Below are positions 1 to 5,685 of a stretch of 5,685 bases of DNA, one piece after another. Both the position numbers and the translations under genes were made by a program. This stretch comes from a virus: IMG/VR virus record IMGVR_UViG_3300045988_003990, positions 1-5,685 of that record. One strand, written 5' to 3'. Under the pieces are notes generated by a model that saw only the letters and a list, made by a program, of their open reading frames with translations, made no database searches and was not told where the DNA came from. Position 1 is the stretch's first letter, and the number at the start of each line of letters is the position of its first letter.

Positions 1-55
1 AAAAAGACCAAAACTATCAACCTTAGCCAGAAGCCTATGCGCGGTGGCATCCGGC
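1..55. repeat. Left copy of a 55-nt exact direct terminal repeat (identical to 5631..5685). This is the overlap signature of a circular genome with a 5630-nt unit length.
   Basis: Base-by-base comparison: aaaaagaccaaaactatcaaccttagccagaagcctatgcgcggtggcatccggc occurs at both ends of the window. An ORF reads continuously across the junction. Confidence 0.95.
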
Positions 56-60
56 TGTAA
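1..60 (+). CDS. 3' end of the small basic DNA-binding/packaging protein (gokushovirus ORF8 / phiX J-like). It is the wrap-around continuation of the CDS starting at 5568, with stop TAA at 58..60.
   Basis: Frame 1 reads KKTKTINLSQKPMRGGIRL*. Joined to 5568.. it gives the 40-aa protein MARHRKAMNGAKDRRMFNVTAKKTKTINLSQKPMRGGIRL. It is very basic, and from memory the C-terminal MRGGIR(L/F) is characteristic of the small ORF8 proteins of Chlamydia/Bdellovibrio-type microviruses. Confidence 0.75.
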   Translation, partial: KKTKTINLSQKPMRGGIRL

Positions 61-77
61 AAGAAAGGGAAACAACA

Positions 78-317
78 ATGAAACACAACTATTACGGCAT
101 CTGGGATGATGTGGCAAAATGCTATGCATGGGTAGGCGAAAGCAAAAACGACGCAACGTTTGCACGGATGTGCAACGTGATGGCAAAGGATGAAAAGACG
201 TTCATCGGGCAGAGCCCGCAGGACTACACCGGCTTTAAGCTGGCGGTGTTCGAAGACGAACTTGGCACGTTCACAAACGACAAAGAGAAGGTATGGGAGG
301 GCAAACCGCATGAATAA
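78..317 (+). CDS. VP5: Small non-structural protein, VP5-like (79 aa).
   Basis: ATG at 78 is preceded by AAGGGA (65..70) at 7-nt spacing. The position between ORF8 and VP3 matches the gokushovirus VP5 slot. The pattern Y.I.D..A..Y....KNDA.A.R......D......P.DY....L..F.D..G.F resembles my recollection of conserved VP5 proteins (PEDY..L..IG.FDD.TG). Not checked by search. Confidence 0.65.
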   Translation: MKHNYYGIWDDVAKCYAWVGESKNDATFARMCNVMAKDEKTFIGQSPQDYTGFKLAVFEDELGTFTNDKEKVWEGKPHE

Positions 318-747
318 ACGATATGAAGAAGGGCGAAAGCCCTTCTTTTCAGCATCGGGCGAAAAAATGCGAAAACAATACGTCTGGACAAAAGACGAGA
401 AAGGGCAGGAAGTGCTGCAAGAAACAGCACCAATCGACATCCAGCAAGAAATTGAATCGTACTCGGACGAATGCGATATCAAAAACATCGTCAGAAAAGC
501 AAGTTTTGACCCGCAGTTCCTTAAAAGCTTATCCGAAGGGACCATGACGGGGACAGAAATAGACATCACCGAATTTCCTCAAAACATTCACGAGTATCAC
601 CGCATGATTGCGACCGCACAGGCAAACGCAATGAAGCTGGAAGAACTACAGAAAATGGCAGAGGAACAAGCAAAAATGGAAGCGGAAAAAGCAAAAACTG
701 TAGCAAAACCTGAAGCAAAACCTGAAGCAAAGGAGGCAGAAAAGTGA
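310..747 (+). CDS. VP3: Internal scaffolding protein VP3 (145 aa).
   Basis: ATG at 310 has GGAGG at 296..300 (9-nt spacing) and overlaps the VP5 stop by 8 nt (ATGAATAA). The motif SYSDECDIKNIV resembles the conserved S(F/Y)k.ECDIN.I motif of gokushovirus scaffolding proteins. It has an acidic, helical, low-complexity C-terminus. The stop TGA overlaps the VP1 GTG start. I rejected the longer track ORF starting at 190 because it overlaps VP5 by 128 nt and has no SD. Confidence 0.8.
   Translation: MNKRYEEGRKPFFSASGEKMRKQYVWTKDEKGQEVLQETAPIDIQQEIESYSDECDIKNIVRKASFDPQFLKSLSEGTMTGTEIDITEFPQNIHEYHRMIATAQANAMKLEELQKMAEEQAKMEAEKAKTVAKPEAKPEAKEAEK
325..349 (+). other. GC-rich hairpin with a GAAA tetraloop followed by TTTT. 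It looks like an intrinsic terminator or attenuator and lies inside codons 6-13 of VP3.
   Basis: gaagggc (328..334) pairs with gcccttc (339..345) around loop gaaa (335..338). The stem extends through a326/a327 paired with t347/t346, and TTTT lies at 346..349. The architecture matches the 2422..2449 terminator. Confidence 0.4.
703..731 (+). repeat. 12-nt tandem repeat (gcaaaacctgaa, about 2.4 copies) encoding the (AKPE)n tail of VP3.
   Basis: gcaaaacctgaa occurs at 703..714 and 715..726, followed by gcaaa. The translation is AKPEAKPEAK, immediately before the AGGAGG SD of VP1. Confidence 0.85.
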
Positions 748-2411
748 ATCGAAACAATGAACGGCACTTTAACCAAATCCCAGAAATGAAAGCAAGTCGA
801 ACACGATTCAACCGCGACCAGACGATTTTAACAACGTTTGATTCCGGCAAACTGATTCCATTTTACGTGGACGAAGTATTGCCCGGCGATACCTTCAGCG
901 TGGACACGTCAGCGATTGTTCGAATGACCACACCGAAGTATCCGGTGATGGACGATGCATTCATTGACTTCTACTATTTCTATTGTCCTAACCGGATTCT
1001 GTGGGACAACTTCAAATATTTCATGGGAGAAATCGAAAGCACGGCATGGATGCCAACAAAAAATTACGAAGTACCCCAAATCGTCATAGACGCAAAAGAC
1101 GCACCATACGAAAAAAGCATACTAGACTACATGGGAGTGCCGACAAAAATTAAAAACAATTTCAGAGTAAACGCACTTCCCGTCAGAGCATACGTAAGAA
1201 TTTGGAATGAATTTTTTAGGGATGAAAACGTAGGCAATGCAGCAGTAGAATACAAAGACGATGACAACAGGTCCTACGGAGACACAAACGATGAAAACAA
1301 TCTAGAAAAAATCCTTCAAGAAGCAGCAAGGGGCGGCCGATGCTTACCAGTAAACAAATTCCACGACTACTTCACAAGCTGTTTGCCATATCCGCAACGC
1401 GGACCGGAAATTACGTTGCCAATGCAGGGCAATGCAATGATAAACGGATTCAAAGATCAAAAACTTAAGGAAAAAACAACTCTGTATGCAAACAGCTTTT
1501 TTGACGGAAGCACAACCGCAGGCAACGTCAAAGACAAACTGTATGCAATCTCAACATACGGAGGCGAAGGACAAGCATACGTAAACATCGGAACAGGAAC
1601 AGGAGAAACCCATGACGTAGTGTACCTGGGCGCAAACCTCAACAGCGTAACAGCAGCAACCATCAACGACTTACGAAAAGCGGTAACAGTGCAGCAGTAC
1701 TATGAAGCACTTGCAAGAGGCGGTAGCAGATACCGCGAACAGGTACAGGCACTGTGGGATGTCACAATCAGCGATAAAACTGTACAGATTCCGGAATACC
1801 TTGGCGGTGGCAGATACCATGTAAACATCAATCAGATTGTACAGACAAGCGGACAGCAGGCCAACGCTGACACGCCTATCGGTGAAACTGGTGCAATGTC
1901 AGTAACACCCATCAACGAAAGCAGTTTCACGAAATCCTTCGAGGAACATGGGTTTGTAATCGGAGTCTGTTGTGTGCGACACAATCACAGTTACCAGCAG
2001 GGGCTTGAACGATTCTGGAGCAGAAAAGACAGGCTAGACTACTATGTACCACAGTTCGCCAATTTGGGCGAACAGCCTGTCAAAAAGAAAGAAATCATGC
2101 TGACCGGCACAGCAAGCGATGAGGAAACATTCGGTTATCAGGAAGCATGGGCAGACTACAGAATGAAGCCTAACCGGGTATCCGGCCTCATGAGAAGCAA
2201 CGCAACGGGAACGCTGGACTTCTGGCATTATGCAGACAACTATTCAACACCTCCAACGCTGTCGCAGGAGTGGATGGCAGAAGGAAAAGCCGAAATCGCA
2301 CGAACACTAATCGTAGAGAATGAACCGCAGTTTTTCGGAGCGATTAGAGTAGCAAACAAAACCACAAGACGGATGCCGTTGTACAGCGTACCGGGCTTGT
2401 ACAAACTGTAA
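744..2411 (+). CDS. VP1: Major capsid protein VP1 (phiX F-like jelly-roll, 555 aa), with a GTG start.
   Basis: GTG at 744 is 7 nt downstream of a perfect AGGAGG (731..736) and overlaps the VP3 stop (GTGA). The N-terminal region ..SRTRFNRDQTILTTFDSGKLIPFYVDEVLPGDTF.. and the later DLR.A...Q.YYEALARGGSRY.E segment are hallmark conserved blocks of Microviridae VP1/F proteins. A long variable insertion (roughly aa 170-300) fits the gokushovirus 'mushroom' loop. Confidence 0.95.
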   Translation: MNRNNERHFNQIPEMKASRTRFNRDQTILTTFDSGKLIPFYVDEVLPGDTFSVDTSAIVRMTTPKYPVMDDAFIDFYYFYCPNRILWDNFKYFMGEIESTAWMPTKNYEVPQIVIDAKDAPYEKSILDYMGVPTKIKNNFRVNALPVRAYVRIWNEFFRDENVGNAAVEYKDDDNRSYGDTNDENNLEKILQEAARGGRCLPVNKFHDYFTSCLPYPQRGPEITLPMQGNAMINGFKDQKLKEKTTLYANSFFDGSTTAGNVKDKLYAISTYGGEGQAYVNIGTGTGETHDVVYLGANLNSVTAATINDLRKAVTVQQYYEALARGGSRYREQVQALWDVTISDKTVQIPEYLGGGRYHVNINQIVQTSGQQANADTPIGETGAMSVTPINESSFTKSFEEHGFVIGVCCVRHNHSYQQGLERFWSRKDRLDYYVPQFANLGEQPVKKKEIMLTGTASDEETFGYQEAWADYRMKPNRVSGLMRSNATGTLDFWHYADNYSTPPTLSQEWMAEGKAEIARTLIVENEPQFFGAIRVANKTTRRMPLYSVPGLYKL

Positions 2412-2421
2412 GAAAGGAGGA

Positions 2422-2449
2422 AGCCCGGAGAAATCCGGGCTATTTTTTA
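2422..2449 (+). terminator. Rho-independent terminator after VP1.
   Basis: An 8-bp perfect stem, agcccgga (2422..2429) paired with tccgggct (2434..2441), closes a GAAA tetraloop and is followed by aTTTTTTaa (2442..2450). It sits 11 nt after the VP1 stop. Confidence 0.8.
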
Positions 2450-2450
2450 A

Positions 2451-3314
2451 ATGGCAGGTTTATCAACACTCTTAACAGGGCTAAACATCGCCGGTTCAAT
2501 CGCGAGCACAGTAGGACAATTTGCAAACGCCGGCAAGCAAATCGCCGGAGCATTCGGCGGATGGGGTCAGACAGGCAACAGCCAAAGCCAGGGCGGAAGC
2601 ATAAGCCAGGGCGGCGGACACTCCAGCAGCGGAAGTCAAGCGGGGACAAACATACAACAGGTAAATGACTGGCTTAAACAGGCATATGCATACCAAGGAC
2701 AAGAAGCTGCAATGCAAGGTAAATACAACAGTCAAAGTATGCTTAAACAGATGGGATACAATACCTTGTCAGCAATCATGCAAGGCGTATATAACCACAT
2801 CGAGAACTCTGTAGCAATGAACTACAACAGCGCAGAAGCAGCCGCAAACCGTGAATGGCAAGAGCACATGTCAAGCACAGCATACCAGAGAGCCGTTGAA
2901 GATATGAAAAAAGCAGGGCTTAACCCAATCTTAGCTTTTGCAAACGGTGGAGCAAGCACACCGGGCGGAAGTGCAGGAACAATCAGCGGTGCAAGTATGG
3001 GACTAGCAAGCAGCAGCGCGCTAGGAGTAAGCCGGAGCGGTGGATTTGTACCAAACGCATACTCAAGTTCAAGCTGGAGTCAAAGTGACTGGTACAATGC
3101 TGCACAAAGCTGGCAACAGATGCTCAGTACAACACACATGACGCCATACGGACTACAAAAGGCGCTTACAGAAGTCGGAAACGACACAAGCAAGGCCATT
3201 ACGGATGCAACAACAAAGACAAGAAAAGGCACAGAACAGAACAGAAGCATGAAACCACAAGACAAAACAGGGTCCTACGGAGAAAAGAGAAAGCCGGGTG
3301 ATTATTTAAGATGA
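2451..3314 (+). CDS. VP2: Minor capsid / DNA pilot protein VP2 (287 aa).
   Basis: It sits directly after VP1. The N-terminal half is rich in Gly/Ser/Gln. The block NREWQEHMSSTAYQRAVEDMKKAGLNPILAF matches the conserved gokushovirus VP2 motif (..MS.TA.QR...D...AGLNP.LA.). The in-frame codon just before the ATG is TAA, so 2451 is the first possible start. Confidence 0.9.
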   Translation: MAGLSTLLTGLNIAGSIASTVGQFANAGKQIAGAFGGWGQTGNSQSQGGSISQGGGHSSSGSQAGTNIQQVNDWLKQAYAYQGQEAAMQGKYNSQSMLKQMGYNTLSAIMQGVYNHIENSVAMNYNSAEAAANREWQEHMSSTAYQRAVEDMKKAGLNPILAFANGGASTPGGSAGTISGASMGLASSSALGVSRSGGFVPNAYSSSSWSQSDWYNAAQSWQQMLSTTHMTPYGLQKALTEVGNDTSKAITDATTKTRKGTEQNRSMKPQDKTGSYGEKRKPGDYLR

Positions 3315-4330
3315 GTTGTTACAAGCCATTAATAAGGCTGTACAACCCAAAAAATAAAGACATAAGCGGGCGGGTGTATTCACTTGCCCGCTTTTCTAAA
3401 ATAAGCGGGAAACAGCTCAAATATGAAGATCTAATGTACAGAAAAGATGTAATGTTGATACCATGCGGACAGTGCATCGGATGCAGAATCAGACAAAGGG
3501 AAGACTGGACAACACGAATAGAATTAGAAGCACGAGATTATCCAAGAGAAGAAGTTTGGTTTATCACACTTACTTATGATGATGAACACGTACCGGGTAT
3601 GATAGTAAACACAGGCGAAATCATACGAAAAGTGCAGTACGTCTGGAAGCCGGGAAAGAAGCGCCCTGAAAGCGTCCAAACGTTACTGTATACTGACGTT
3701 CAAAAGTTCTTAAAACGCCTTAGAAAGGCTTATAAGGGCAAATTACGCTATTTCATAGCAGGAGAGTACGGAGAACAGACAGCAAGGCCGCATTATCATA
3801 TGATACTGTATGGATGGCAACCGACAGACCTAGAGCACCTATACAAGATACGGCACAACGGATATTTCACGAGTAAATGGCTAACGGACCTATGGGGCAT
3901 GGGTCAAATACAGATAGCGCAAGCAGTGCCAGAAACATATAGATATGTTGCAGGATACGTCACAAAAAAAATGTATGAGATAGACGGTCAAAAAGCAAAC
4001 GCATACTACGAACTAGGGCAACAAAAGCCATTCGCATGTATGAGCCTTAAACCGGGTCTGGGAGATCACTACTATCAAGAACACAAAGCAGAAATCTGGA
4101 GACAAGGATACATCCAATGCACAAACGGCAAACGCGCACAAATTCCACGCTATTATGAAAAAATGATGGAAGCTGAAAACCCACAAAGATTGTGGAGAAT
4201 TAAACAGAACAGACAAGCAACAACCATAGCGGAGAACCGGCTTAAATACGAAAATGCAGACTTTGCAGAACAGTGTAAAACGAAAGAGAGAGTGATAAAG
4301 AAGCAGATGAAGAAAAAAGGGACACTTTAA
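3311..4330 (+). CDS. VP4: Replication initiation protein VP4 (HUH rolling-circle endonuclease, phiX A-like, 339 aa).
   Basis: The ATG overlaps the VP2 stop (ATGA). It carries a Cys cluster PCGQCIGCR, RCR motif 1 FITLTYD, the HUH motif PHYHMILYG, and the double-tyrosine catalytic motif YRYVAGYVTKK (phiX A protein has YVAKYVNKK). Confidence 0.95.
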   Translation: MSCYKPLIRLYNPKNKDISGRVYSLARFSKISGKQLKYEDLMYRKDVMLIPCGQCIGCRIRQREDWTTRIELEARDYPREEVWFITLTYDDEHVPGMIVNTGEIIRKVQYVWKPGKKRPESVQTLLYTDVQKFLKRLRKAYKGKLRYFIAGEYGEQTARPHYHMILYGWQPTDLEHLYKIRHNGYFTSKWLTDLWGMGQIQIAQAVPETYRYVAGYVTKKMYEIDGQKANAYYELGQQKPFACMSLKPGLGDHYYQEHKAEIWRQGYIQCTNGKRAQIPRYYEKMMEAENPQRLWRIKQNRQATTIAENRLKYENADFAEQCKTKERVIKKQMKKKGTL

Positions 4331-4348
4331 CAGTGTCATGGTGTCACC

Positions 4349-4382
4349 TAGCCCAGTACCTATCAAGTAAGGTCCTGGGCTA
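4349..4382 (+). other. Imperfect stem-loop downstream of VP4, with no T-tract.
   Basis: tagcccag (4349..4356) pairs with ctgggcta (4375..4382). An inner stem pairs acct (4358..4361) with aggt (4370..4373) across a t/c mismatch, leaving the 8-nt loop atcaagta. A smaller hairpin, gacact/agtgtc (4321..4337), spans the VP4 stop. Confidence 0.6.
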
Positions 4383-4437
4383 TTGTCATCTAAATGGACC
4401 ATGTATCAGACTATTCAGTCTATAAAATAATCTTATT

Positions 4438-4497
4438 CACACGTGCGCACACGCGCGATAGCGCGCACGCGCGCACGCGCGATATAATATTAACTTG
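4438..4497. repeat. Extremely GC-rich alternating purine/pyrimidine block that ends abruptly in an AT-rich TATAATATTAACTTG motif. It is a candidate replication-origin element.
   Basis: There are two alternating Py/Pu runs of 20-21 nt (4438..4457 cacacgtgcgcacacgcgcg; 4461..4481 gcgcgcacgcgcgcacgcgcg). acgcgcgata repeats at 4451..4460 and 4475..4484, and gcgcacgcgcg repeats at 4463 and 4471. The inverted repeat cgtgcgc (4442..4448) can pair with gcgcacg (4463..4469 or 4471..4477). TAATATTAAC follows at 4485..4494 and AACTTG at 4492..4497. Confidence 0.7.
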
Positions 4498-4519
4498 TTG
4501 TAGACGTAGTAGTAGGCAA

Positions 4520-4694
4520 TGTGGAAAAGTTGAAAAGCACTAAAATTTAACGTTAAAACGTAAATAAAAAACAAAAAACAATGTTGAAAGTTTTGTTGAA
4601 AAAATGTTGAATTGTTGAAAGTTCGTCAAAATAACGAAAATCATTGTGCAACATTTTGTTGAAAACCTGTTGAAAGTGTTGAAAGTGTTGAAAA
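4520..4694 (+). repeat. Iteron-like array of direct TGTTGAAA repeats in three clusters, including a perfect 9-nt tandem triplet.
   Basis: Perfect TGTTGAAA starts at 4582, 4594, 4613, 4657, 4668, 4677 and 4686. One-mismatch copies start at 4520 (TGTGGAAA), 4528 (AGTTGAAA) and 4605 (TGTTGAAT). All copies share one orientation, and the spacings within clusters are 8-12 nt. The triplet is tgttgaaag/tgttgaaag/tgttgaaaa at 4668..4694. An A-rich stretch (4541..4581) separates the upstream pair (4520, 4528) from the first main cluster. Confidence 0.9.
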
Positions 4695-4753
4695 CGCGCA
4701 CAGCGCTTACAAGGAATGGATTATCCGAGCTCCGCATACGCTACGCACGGAAA

Positions 4754-4767
4754 GGCGCTAAAGCGCC
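4754..4767. promoter_or_regulatory. Inverted repeat GGCGC-N4-GCGCC about 20 nt upstream of the -35 element. It could be an operator or a small hairpin.
   Basis: ggcgc (4754..4758), taaa, gcgcc (4763..4767). No T-tract follows it. Confidence 0.35.
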
Positions 4768-4785
4768 ATTCAAACCAAAAAACAA

Positions 4786-4814
4786 TTGACAGACGACAAA
4801 ATATATGATAAAAT
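4786..4814 (+). promoter_or_regulatory. Near-consensus sigma70/sigmaA promoter: TTGACA, 17-nt spacer, TGnTAAAAT (extended -10).
   Basis: TTGACA lies at 4786..4791 and TAAAAT at 4809..4814 with an exact 17-nt spacer. TG lies at 4806..4807 (extended -10). An A-rich UP-like tract lies upstream (4771..4785). It sits at the end of the only long non-coding region and points into the gene string. The predicted transcription start is around 4821. Confidence 0.75.
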
Positions 4815-4839
4815 CCACAATAGAAAGCGAGGGAACAGC

Positions 4840-5229
4840 ATGATTAAAAGTTATATCGTGGACCAAAACGCAAACGAAAAAGTAGGAAAGCACTTTAAAG
4901 TAAAAGAATTTGCGTGCAAAGACGGATCTCAAGCAGTATTTATAGACGAACACCTCGCATCAATCTTAGACATTCTCCGAAACAAAATCGGAAAACCTGT
5001 CATCATCACCAGCGGATACAGAACGCCAGAGTGGAACAAAAGATGTGGAGGAGCAAAGTACAGTTACCATATACGCGGTATGGCTGCAGACATTCGAGTA
5101 AATGGAATGAGCGCAAAAGAAATCGCCAACGAACTGAATGCAATCGTTCCGAATGAATGCGGCATTATCGTATATAAAAGTTGGGTACATTTCGATGTAA
5201 GGACCAGCAAATACAGAAAGGGGGTATAA
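4840..5229 (+). CDS. Zinc metallopeptidase of the M15 family (M15A / Peptidase_M15_3-like cell-wall hydrolase, 129 aa). It is a putative endolysin.
   Basis: ATG at 4840 lies downstream of GAGGG (4829..4833). The motifs are SGYRTPEWN, then SYH-x6-D (H77 at 5068..5070, D84) in HIRGMAADI, then WVHFD (H117). This is the H..D...H zinc-ligand arrangement of the LAS/M15 peptidoglycan peptidases. There is no N-terminal signal peptide or transmembrane (TM) segment. I rejected the track start at 4786 (TTG) because it is the -35 hexamer. Confidence 0.85.
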   Translation: MIKSYIVDQNANEKVGKHFKVKEFACKDGSQAVFIDEHLASILDILRNKIGKPVIITSGYRTPEWNKRCGGAKYSYHIRGMAADIRVNGMSAKEIANELNAIVPNECGIIVYKSWVHFDVRTSKYRKGV

Positions 5230-5230
5230 G

Positions 5231-5353
5231 ATGGCTCTGATTTCCATTAAGGACGTCAAGCAGGCAATCCGCATTATGATGCAGATTCTGGAAAAGCTCG
5301 ACGAAATCTATCACGCGCTGCATGATAGCATCAACGAAAAAGAAAAGGAGTAA
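5231..5353 (+). CDS. Hypothetical small protein (40 aa), absent from the ORF track: MALISIKDVKQAIRIMMQILEKLDEIYHALHDSINEKEKE.
   Basis: The ATG lies 1 nt after the peptidase stop, with AAAGGGG (5218..5224) 6 nt upstream. The stop is at 5351..5353. Its own 3' end carries the AAGGAG SD of the next ORF, so the genes are tightly packed. It looks like a single amphipathic helix with an acidic tail and no TM segment. Confidence 0.6.
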   Translation: MALISIKDVKQAIRIMMQILEKLDEIYHALHDSINEKEKE

Positions 5354-5356
5354 ACC

Positions 5357-5584
5357 ATGGTACACAAAACATGGAACATACGAGACCAGACCACAAAAGA
5401 ACTAGAAATTCTACTCGAACGAAAATACAAAGAAATTGATAGCAATTACAAAATGTTTAAAAAAGCGTCAAGTATCGAAGATGCTAAAAGAATAGTAAAC
5501 GAAACTCGGCAAATAAAAAACTTTGCAAACGACATCGAATTAGAGCTAATGCGAAGGGAGTACAACAATGGCACGACATCGTAA
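5357..5584 (+). CDS. Hypothetical protein (75 aa), highly charged and apparently all-helical or coiled-coil.
   Basis: ATG at 5357 is preceded by AAGGAG (5345..5350) at 6-nt spacing. Its 3' end overlaps the ORF8-like start by 17 nt and contains that gene's SD. I recognise no family motif. Confidence 0.65.
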   Translation: MVHKTWNIRDQTTKELEILLERKYKEIDSNYKMFKKASSIEDAKRIVNETRQIKNFANDIELELMRREYNNGTTS

Positions 5585-5685
5585 GGCAATGAACGGCGCA
5601 AAAGACCGCCGAATGTTTAACGTAACCGCAAAAAAGACCAAAACTATCAACCTTAGCCAGAAGCCTATGCGCGGTGGCATCCGGC
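5568..5685 (+). CDS. 5' part of the small basic DNA-binding/packaging protein (ORF8/J-like). It continues across the circular junction to the stop at 58..60.
   Basis: ATG at 5568 is preceded by AAGGGAG (5554..5560) at 7-nt spacing. It is open to the window end and in phase with 1..60 once the 55-nt overlap is collapsed. The protein is 40 aa and rich in Arg/Lys. Confidence 0.75.
   Translation, partial: MARHRKAMNGAKDRRMFNVTAKKTKTINLSQKPMRGGIR
5631..5685. repeat. Right copy of the 55-nt terminal direct repeat (identical to 1..55).
   Basis: Exact identity to 1..55. Confidence 0.95.

Follow-up and report, generated by a model that had tools for sequence, protein, structure and literature searches.

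The closest described counterpart of the element reported here is the basal unwinding system (BUS) of the bacterial chromosomal origin oriC, which was defined in Bacillus subtilis and is predicted in most bacteria. It consists of one or two co-oriented DnaA boxes with no more than two mismatches to the consensus or to a species-specific motif (two boxes being 3 bp or less apart), a box-trio spacer of 0-16 bp (the 'GC-rich region', counted from the proximal box, averages 4 bp), and, 5′ of the boxes on the trio strand, a run of at least three DnaA-trios, each with a central A (NAN, consensus 3′-GAT-5′) (PMC8287927). In B. subtilis incC a subregion of distal boxes is needed as well, which works from 132-462 bp away in either orientation and with helical phasing. 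Here we report a BUS-like arrangement on a small single-stranded DNA (ssDNA) phage, IMG/VR virus record IMGVR_UViG_3300045988_003990, of which the whole analysed stretch (positions 1-5,685, 5,685 nt; hereafter the window) is a complete-looking gut gokushovirus genome. Downstream of its replication-initiator gene VP4, repeats of the 8-mer TGTTGAAA are part of a non-coding cassette of about 213 bp (4483-4695). From their sequence these repeats are most likely DnaA boxes, in the variant form TTTTCAACA / TTTTCCACA of the Ruminococcus-like Oscillospirales chromosomal origin, and the cassette appears to be a chromosomal-type DnaA unwinding module on a rolling-circle ssDNA phage.

The likeness to BUS and incC (Richardson 2016/2019; Pelliciari 2021/2023) lies in two co-oriented boxes, a spacer of about 4 bp, at least three DnaA-trios 5′ of the boxes with a candidate AT-rich unwinding tract beyond, and further distal boxes at distances of tens to hundreds of bp. 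Both this layout and the box variant are common to the phage and the predicted Ruminococcus oriCs. The phage unit differs from BUS and incC in being carried by a 5.7-kb rolling-circle ssDNA phage and not beside a chromosomal dnaA, in its very short AT-rich tract, in proximal boxes that are 8 bp apart and not 9, and in being an invertible unit of about 213 bp.

Plasmid and phage replicons such as P1 oriR, pSC101, F, RK2 and R6K are likewise mobile and use host DnaA through consensus-like boxes; in their origins, iterons for the replicon's own Rep protein stand together with a single DnaA box or a small number of them. DnaA can also initiate replication on M13-derived ssDNA through the R6K A-site (ABC primosome), for which the DnaA box has to be inside a hairpin. 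Unlike these, the phage carries ten direct-repeat boxes plus trios, and shows neither such a hairpin nor signs of Rep iterons. DnaA-titrating loci (Escherichia coli datA and the B. subtilis DnaA-box clusters) resemble the cassette as box clusters outside oriC that bind many DnaA molecules; we know of no description of such loci with an adjacent trio run and unwinding element, whereas the phage cassette has both a trio run and a candidate unwinding element. Rep-binding iterons of geminiviruses, CRESS-DNA viruses and rolling-circle plasmids likewise form direct repeats in non-coding DNA of small replicons with an HUH Rep, but they co-vary with Rep and keep a fixed orientation beside the nick-site hairpin, whereas the phage repeat does not vary with VP4 and its unit can be inverted. 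Microviruses are a textbook case of rolling-circle replication by their own HUH protein, and to our knowledge the 30-bp origin of phiX174 has no repeat array.

The repeat array and its cassette

Over the whole window TGTTGAAA occurs seven times, on the + strand only (starts at 4582, 4594, 4613, 4657, 4668, 4677 and 4686), and no further copy was found on either strand; three one-mismatch copies, at 4520 (TGTGGAAA), 4528 (AGTTGAAA) and 4605 (TGTTGAAT), are co-oriented with them. The start-to-start distances of the ten copies are 8, 54, 12, 11, 8, 44, 11, 9 and 9 nt, and 4668-4693 is a perfect 9-nt tandem of 2.9 copies. In dinucleotide shuffles TGTTGAAA was present 0.29 times on average and twice at most, none of 200 shuffles reaching seven. 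These counts bear out an earlier sequence-only reading of this DNA, which had noted seven perfect and three near-perfect copies in one orientation within 4520-4694, a perfect 9-nt triple tandem among them, a rarity by chance and no copy elsewhere. The limits given there to the array are right, but they omit the adjoining and equally conserved 4483-4519 of the same unit, which comprises the AT-rich tract, TAG repeats and a spacer. The ten copies fall into three groups (two at 4520-4537, four at 4582-4621 and four at 4657-4694), all seven perfect copies being in the distal clusters and the near-perfect copies at 4520 and 4528 forming the proximal pair. The parts of the cassette are as follows.

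4483..4695, no strand: whole oriC-like cassette, a conserved unit of near-constant length, inverted in some lineages
4482..4494, no strand: AT-rich tract ATATAATATTAAC (12 A/T, then C), candidate unwinding element at the outer cassette end
4495..4515, + strand: DnaA-trio-like run TTG TTG TAG ACG TAG TAG TAG (5′-TAG-3′ = 3′-GAT-5′)
4516..4519, no strand: spacer GCAA, 4 bp, from trios to proximal box (host counterpart GGGG)
4520..4537, + strand: proximal pair of co-oriented DnaA-box-like 9-mers, TGTGGAAAA and (A)GTTGAAAAG
4538..4581, no strand: A-rich spacer with a small variable hairpin, from proximal pair to cluster B (conservation 0.82)
4582..4621, + strand: distal DnaA-box cluster B, four co-oriented putative boxes (starts 4582, 4594, 4605, 4613)
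4622..4656, no strand: spacer between clusters B and C, with a small palindrome TTCGTCAAAATAACGAA and the conserved TTGTGCAACATTT
4657..4694, + strand: distal DnaA-box cluster C, four co-oriented putative boxes (starts 4657, 4668, 4677, 4686), holding the 9-nt triple tandem

The + strand of 4482-4537 thus reads ATATAATATTAAC / TTGTTGTAGACGTAGTAGTAG (the seven triplets) / GCAA / TGTGGAAAA / GTTGAAAAG. When the rules for a BUS were applied to it, the first proximal box TGTGGAAAA (4520-4528) was found to have one mismatch to TGTGGATAA and to be identical to the TTTTCCACA boxes of a Ruminococcus locus (L130 in our set), and the TGTTGAAAA copies have two mismatches and are identical to the dominant 8-mer of the host oriC. 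TGTGGAAAA and GTTGAAAAG abut on the same strand within 4520-4537, and the GCAA spacer measures 4 bp. The three box-proximal trios, TAG TAG TAG at 4507-4515, are perfect consensus and lie 5′ of the boxes with the polarity of the host origins; an additional TAG stands at 4501-4503. Clusters B and C, starting 62 and 137 bp from the proximal box, correspond to the distal subregion of incC. A strict search for (TAG)3 no more than 16 nt 5′ of a box gave one site in the window, and none in 2000 genomes simulated with a first-order Markov model. In its predicted elements the cassette is laid out like the unwinding region of a Firmicute oriC. It lies between phage VP4 and an M15 peptidase gene, with no dnaA; since a chromosomal dnaA/dnaN location is lacking, we named it an oriC-like module and not oriC.

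Conservation follows this division into parts. Over 80 unique cassettes the mean column conservation is 0.92 for the AT-rich tract, 0.954 for the trio run, 0.93 for the proximal pair and 0.94 for cluster C, and in cluster B it is 0.96 for boxes vs 0.83 for inter-box bases; for the cassette as a whole the boxes range over 0.93-0.96 with the trios at 0.95, no other columns being better conserved, and the inter-box bases over 0.83-0.85. The least conserved part is the GCAA spacer (0.48), the length of which is constant in relatives. The trio run of the relatives is TAG (GAG/AAG/TAG/ACG) TAG TAG TAG, most having GAG second. All 12 positions of 4482-4493 are A/T; this tract is much shorter than the AT-rich stretches of host origins, and in most genomes a GC-rich palindrome bounds it. 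The weakly folding hairpin of 4538-4581 has compensating stem substitutions across the alignment of relatives. The half-sites of palindrome TTCGTCAAAATAACGAA (4622-4638) fit the Spo0A 0A-box TGNCGAA, and in the relatives L009-L012 this palindrome is exchanged for a different one, TGCACAAA...TTTGTGCA.

Relatives on phages and in bacterial origins

We compared 93 phage loci (the window, 12 from GenBank and 80 from IMG/VR). The cassette is present in 83 of them, nine loci are cut off by the contig end and one is without it, so that 83 of the 84 with enough sequence carry the cassette. A look for arrays at the same locus in related microviruses, which had been proposed as a check, came out positive: in 12 of 12 fetched GenBank relatives the array is downstream of VP4, at the same locus and in one orientation. 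The cassette is 216 nt long in 63 of 84 by our own delimitation. The sole relative with ample sequence after VP4 that lacks the cassette is L022 (IMGVR_UViG_3300045988_086966, 8.8 kb), a contig longer than a microvirus genome that may be chimeric. A GenBank search with the intergenic region gave matches in 56 microvirus records, and one with just the 213-nt core gave 46; similarity of the window to MT135268 and MG945136 is limited to ~4483-4778 and 4482-4684, respectively, and for some phages the cassette core is the sole DNA that can be aligned to the window. The alignment also indicates that the repeats sit in a larger conserved block starting at the very conserved ATAACTTGTTGTAGnnGTAGTAGTAG, which the sequence-only reading had not flagged. 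Some relatives have TGTGGAAAA as the box, and L009-L011 have TGTGGATAA, which on the opposite strand reads as the DnaA-box consensus TTATCCACA and is hence a perfect match to it. In the plasmid database PLSDB no plasmid resembling the cassette was found.

The cassette is reverse-complemented in 6 of 83 IMG/VR relatives (L039, L051, L058, L061, L065 and L066), the VP4 proteins of which are 92-94% identical to that of the window, and the GenBank records MG945447, KT264784, KT264800, KT264801 and MG945388 match it on the opposite strand. In the examples that were aligned or read, the breakpoints are at ~4483 and ~4695, and the right flank is unchanged in L061. Short GC-rich repeats that flank the cassette (4457-4468 and 4690-4701) might mediate the inversion. 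The polarity of the trios relative to the boxes is kept in 74 of 77 forward cassettes and in all six inverted ones. As the cassette works in either orientation relative to the packaged strand, it must act as duplex DNA, and it cannot hold a strand-specific nick site for VP4.

The same 8-mer is kept at VP4 identities of 46-93%, including six relatives (L007, L009-L012 and L175) with only 46-57% identity in VP4 and 49-57% in VP1; co-variation of the repeat with VP4, another check that had been proposed, was thus not observed. One of these, L175 (CALBJK010000280.1, 5,840 nt; identity to the window 50% in VP1 and 51% in VP4), represents an entire gokushovirus genome with the same cassette, binned in a 'Prevotella' metagenome-assembled genome (MAG); this bin label is not reliable evidence of the host.

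For bacteria, one genome per species was scanned for three tandem TGT(G/T)GAAA units, giving at least 120 loci. Many of the matches listed are brief runs of a tandem 9-mer, and several of these seem to lie in coding sequence. The dense arrays other than plain tandems (13-30 boxes per 800 nt) are, among the matches listed, all labelled Ruminococcus or Oscillospiraceae; box counts of this order are also seen at a few loci with plain tandem repeats, L185 and L167 for example. The array takes up the dnaA-dnaN spacer of L130 and L147 (both genes identified by Pfam), with rnpA or recF nearby, which is the classical position of the Firmicute oriC unwinding region, and in L158 it follows dnaA (Pfam). 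TGTTGAAA is present in 25, 14 and 23 copies in L130, L147 and L158, being the commonest 8-mer of the first two and second only to poly-A in the third, and the boxes are strongly co-oriented (33:4, 21:5 and 30:6). Host and phage boxes have the same preferences, namely T much more often than G at position 4 and A/G at position 9.

Near dnaN the spacer of L130 ends with TTTTCCACA GTTTCAACA CCCC CTACTACTACTACTA and then AT-rich DNA, or, on the other strand, AT-rich DNA, (TAG)5, GGGG, TGTTGAAAC and TGTGGAAAA. The layout is the same in L145, L147 and L182, the host spacer ends being AT-rich DNA, (TAG)4-5, GGGG, TGTTGAAAC and TGT(G/T)GAAAA. Phage and host agree in element order, polarity and spacer length. 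The phage motif is identical to the dominant repeat of the Ruminococcus-type oriC and adjoins a DnaA-trio run, which points to host DnaA. Cluster C is 97% identical over 38 nt to part of the dense one-orientation arrays of TGTTGAAA-type boxes in the Ruminococcus loci L121 and L143, which may or may not be oriC, as no dnaA is present in the available stretch of either. The similarity of the phage cassette to the host oriC is confined to motif-bearing stretches, so that recent capture cannot be shown.

The DnaA proteins of seven loci (L130, L147, L158, L182, L187, L196 and L212) have RDHSTIVY(S/A) as the DNA-reading helix, where B. subtilis DnaA (PDB 8BTG) has RDHTTVIHA. The RDHSTIVY helix may be the basis of the unusual TTTTCAACA box. 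The Thr and His that are replaced in the Ruminococcus-type DnaA presumably contact bases in the complex of E. coli DnaA domain IV with DNA. From the motif identity the hosts of these phages are probably Ruminococcus-like Oscillospirales, and a sigma-70-type promoter and a GAGG Shine-Dalgarno-like sequence in the window are consistent with this assignment.

Similar sites were seen in two other sets of sequences. Seventeen large IMG/VR 'viral' contigs of 12-160 kb (L213, L215, L216, L224 and L228 among them) carry BUS-like sites composed of AT-rich DNA, (TAG)3-6, GGGG, TGTGGATAA and a second box, the box spacing in L215 being 8 nt as in the microvirus cassette; these may be mis-called chromosomal origins or origin-like modules on large phages. 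L102, L113, L160 and L172, from Lachnospiraceae/Clostridium MAGs, have in common a conserved site TGTGGAAAGTGTGGAAAATGTGGAAAA after a conserved AAATAGTAAAAATTTCAG..., which is probably a DnaA-box cluster of another Clostridia lineage using the G variant of the box.

The probable binder and the alternatives

The binder of the cassette is most likely host DnaA on the double-stranded replicative form, not VP4, because the box is constant over VP4 divergence and the cassette is invertible, non-coding and unstructured as ssDNA. We are fairly confident, from the sequence comparisons, that the cassette is a DnaA-box/DnaA-trio module bound by host DnaA. The identity of the motif, the architecture, the conservation, the independence of orientation and the lack of coding capacity and ssDNA structure are read directly from the sequences, and DnaA binding, unwinding and helicase loading, as well as the stage of the phage cycle concerned, are inferred. 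Host DnaA-ATP would bind the ten boxes on the replicative form, the distal clusters raising the DnaA concentration locally, and DnaA at the proximal pair would oligomerise onto the TAG (trio) strand, with the result that the trios and the AT-rich DNA (4482-4515) may open. Such an opening could recruit the helicase-loading and priming machinery of the host to phage DNA, so that the replicative form would replicate or persist in step with the host initiator, DnaA sequestration being a possible side-effect or parallel effect. To what use the opening would be put is much less certain: theta-type amplification or maintenance, priming in rolling-circle replication, or mainly DnaA sequestration.

Several points weigh against a DnaA module. 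The Ruminococcus boxes are themselves predictions made from their position in oriC, and TGTTGAAAA departs from the E. coli consensus at two bases. No more than 12-13 nt make up the AT-rich tract, the proximal boxes are 8 nt apart in the phage vs 9 nt in four host origins, and ACG, one of the seven triplets in the window, is without a central A. The loose (NAN)3 rule gave eight matches vs 4.7 expected in this A-rich genome; it is uninformative here, and therefore the strict TAG consensus was used. Most of the IMG/VR relatives come from one metagenome (3300045988), and the host assignment rests on motif identity and on MAG labels, which are possibly imprecise, in a scan that gave at least 120 loci. 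In addition, a rolling-circle phage has no obvious need for DnaA, and the downstream role is speculative.

It is unlikely that the boxes serve only as a sponge, titrating host DnaA so as to stop host initiation, shift its timing or relieve the repression of dnaA, without the phage DNA being unwound. A set of ten co-oriented boxes, present on a replicative form of many copies, would suit this purpose, and the distal clusters alone resemble chromosomal DnaA-box clusters. Titration needs, however, neither trios nor a fixed spacer geometry nor an AT-rich tract, and the TAG run and the flanking AACTTGTTG are among the most conserved stretches of the cassette, with the polarity of trios to boxes kept in forward and inverted cassettes. 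This strong conservation of the trios argues against titration alone.

That the repeats are Rep iterons, bound by the phage HUH initiator VP4 and placing it at the rolling-circle origin as in geminivirus, CRESS and plasmid replicons, we regard as decidedly improbable. The array follows immediately on the VP4 gene, within the main non-coding region, its direct repeats are near hairpins, and the nick site of gokushoviruses is not known. Against this, the 8-mer is unchanged over the whole range of VP4 divergence, and the inversion of the cassette relative to VP4 and the fixed hairpins in several lineages would bring a strand-specific origin onto the wrong strand. The adjoining GC palindrome varies in its loop and L061 is without it, no conserved nick-site hairpin being adjacent, and the motif together with the TAG run is found in bacterial dnaA-dnaN spacers with no microvirus genes nearby. 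Of the sequence-only reading, the proposal of protein-binding iterons of the replication-origin kind is upheld on these comparisons, but VP4 as the binder is not, given the same 8-mer at 46-57% VP4 identity and the cassette in both orientations relative to VP4 and the fixed flanks. A phiX174-like origin was also looked for: AACTTG (4492-4497) and ACTTGATA (4362-4369) resemble what we take to be its core. AACTTG inverts with the cassette and ACTTGATA is on the non-coding strand, and so neither was assigned as a nick site.

There is very little probability that the array is an operator through which a host regulator (Spo0A, DnaA in its role of transcription factor, or some other protein that binds repeats) acts on the promoter at 4786-4814. 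The array lies 90-270 nt upstream of this best promoter-like site, DnaA and Spo0A are both transcription factors, and the palindrome TTCGTCA...ACGAA between the clusters fits 0A half-sites; but no box overlaps the promoter, its distance varies among relatives, inversion reverses the array, and the trio run is left unexplained. None of the ten repeat copies fits TGNCGAA and none has C at the fourth position, so that the resemblance of the motif to the Spo0A box, put forward earlier, did not hold; it probably reflects the known likeness of 0A boxes and DnaA boxes. The suggestion of a host DNA-binding protein as alternative binder stands, but nothing was found to support its operator role at 4786, since distance and orientation shift with inversion.

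A single-strand or coding signal (complementary-strand origin, ABC-primosome-type hairpin, packaging signal, structured RNA or 'hypothetical protein') is next to negligible in probability: some GenBank records have an open reading frame (ORF) annotated over the cassette and there is a minus-strand ORF of 65 aa, but every frame of the box strand is interrupted by TGA, on the complement an open frame runs through only 11 of 84 cassettes, there are length variants of 1-2 nt, the ssDNA fold is not superior to that of shuffles (z = -0.17 for the whole cassette and +0.7 for its trio/box part), the boxes as direct repeats are not duplex in the virion strand, inversion places the complement on the packaged strand, and no Rfam match was obtained. 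A coding region was therefore rejected for want of a conserved frame, with the length variants and the inversion, and an ssDNA structure or packaging signal for its fold and invertibility; the 'hypothetical protein' annotated in those records is probably spurious. For an ABC-primosome-type hairpin with a DnaA box, the sole 9-nt inverted match (4601-4609 with 4649-4657) is not kept in the inverted lineage.

Genome surroundings and meaning for gokushoviruses

The array lies in the 509-nt intergenic region from VP4 to the M15 peptidase gene. The genes of the window are as follows.

78-317: VP5
190-747: VP3-like scaffold
744-2411: VP1
2451-3314: VP2 pilot protein
3311-4330: VP4 replication initiator
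4840-5229: M15 peptidase

The best sigma-70-like site of the genome, at 4786-4814, consists of TTGACA, 17 nt and TAAAAT with an upstream TG (11 of 12 matches), and the GAGG sequence stands upstream of the peptidase start. No relevant family came out of an Rfam scan over the window. A hairpin at 4349-4382 (ssDNA fold z = -4.4) immediately follows the VP4 stop codon, the stem of which hairpin varies among relatives by compensating substitutions with the loop CTATCAAGTAAG kept; the complement of this loop contains, on the non-coding strand, ACTTGATA, presumably the phiX174 origin core. This hairpin could terminate the VP4 operon, or it could belong to the actual origin of rolling-circle or complementary-strand synthesis. 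Adjoining the AT-rich end of the cassette, 4437-4482 is a GC-rich palindrome of alternating purine/pyrimidine (CGCGCAC repeats), which keeps its position, varies in loop and sequence, is missing in L061 and folds no better than shuffles of the same composition. The GC-rich right flank (4695-4778) holds two short hairpins, GCGC-ACA-GCGC and GGCGC-TAAA-GCGCC, and lies outside the inverted unit; it is kept along with the cassette even in MT135268 (VP4 46% identical). Within the VP3-like scaffold gene, tandem repeats of 21 nt and 12 nt (652-731, 88-90% matches) presumably encode a repetitive Lys/Glu-rich stretch.

Full-text literature searches returned nothing that links gokushoviruses, Microviridae or microviruses to DnaA boxes, oriC or iterons, and no description of DnaA-trios on a phage; the earlier remark that iteron arrays are undescribed for Microviridae agrees with these searches, in which no such paper was found. 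This small ssDNA phage probably recruits the initiator of host chromosome replication. More tentatively, and with considerable doubt on our side, gut gokushoviruses may carry a second, host-type origin, by which the replicative form would be a DnaA-dependent, theta-mode 'mini-chromosome' coupled to the host cell cycle. In that case there would be a stable carrier state for ssDNA phages without integrase in Ruminococcus-like bacteria, the cassette would amount to an origin module that is mobile and can invert, with its box variant tuned to host DnaA, and the box sequence could read out the hosts of uncultured microviruses.

For the recruitment of host DnaA as such, the cassette offers a sequence-based clue to the long-unknown hosts, pointing to Ruminococcus-type Oscillospirales with the unusual TTTTCAACA box in oriC, and a natural minimal origin-like element of about 213 bp for the study of DnaA unwinding. 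If it is true, a large clade of human and animal gut gokushoviruses would also engage the bacterial chromosome initiator, which would suggest a replication step or a means of persistence not recognised so far in these phages.

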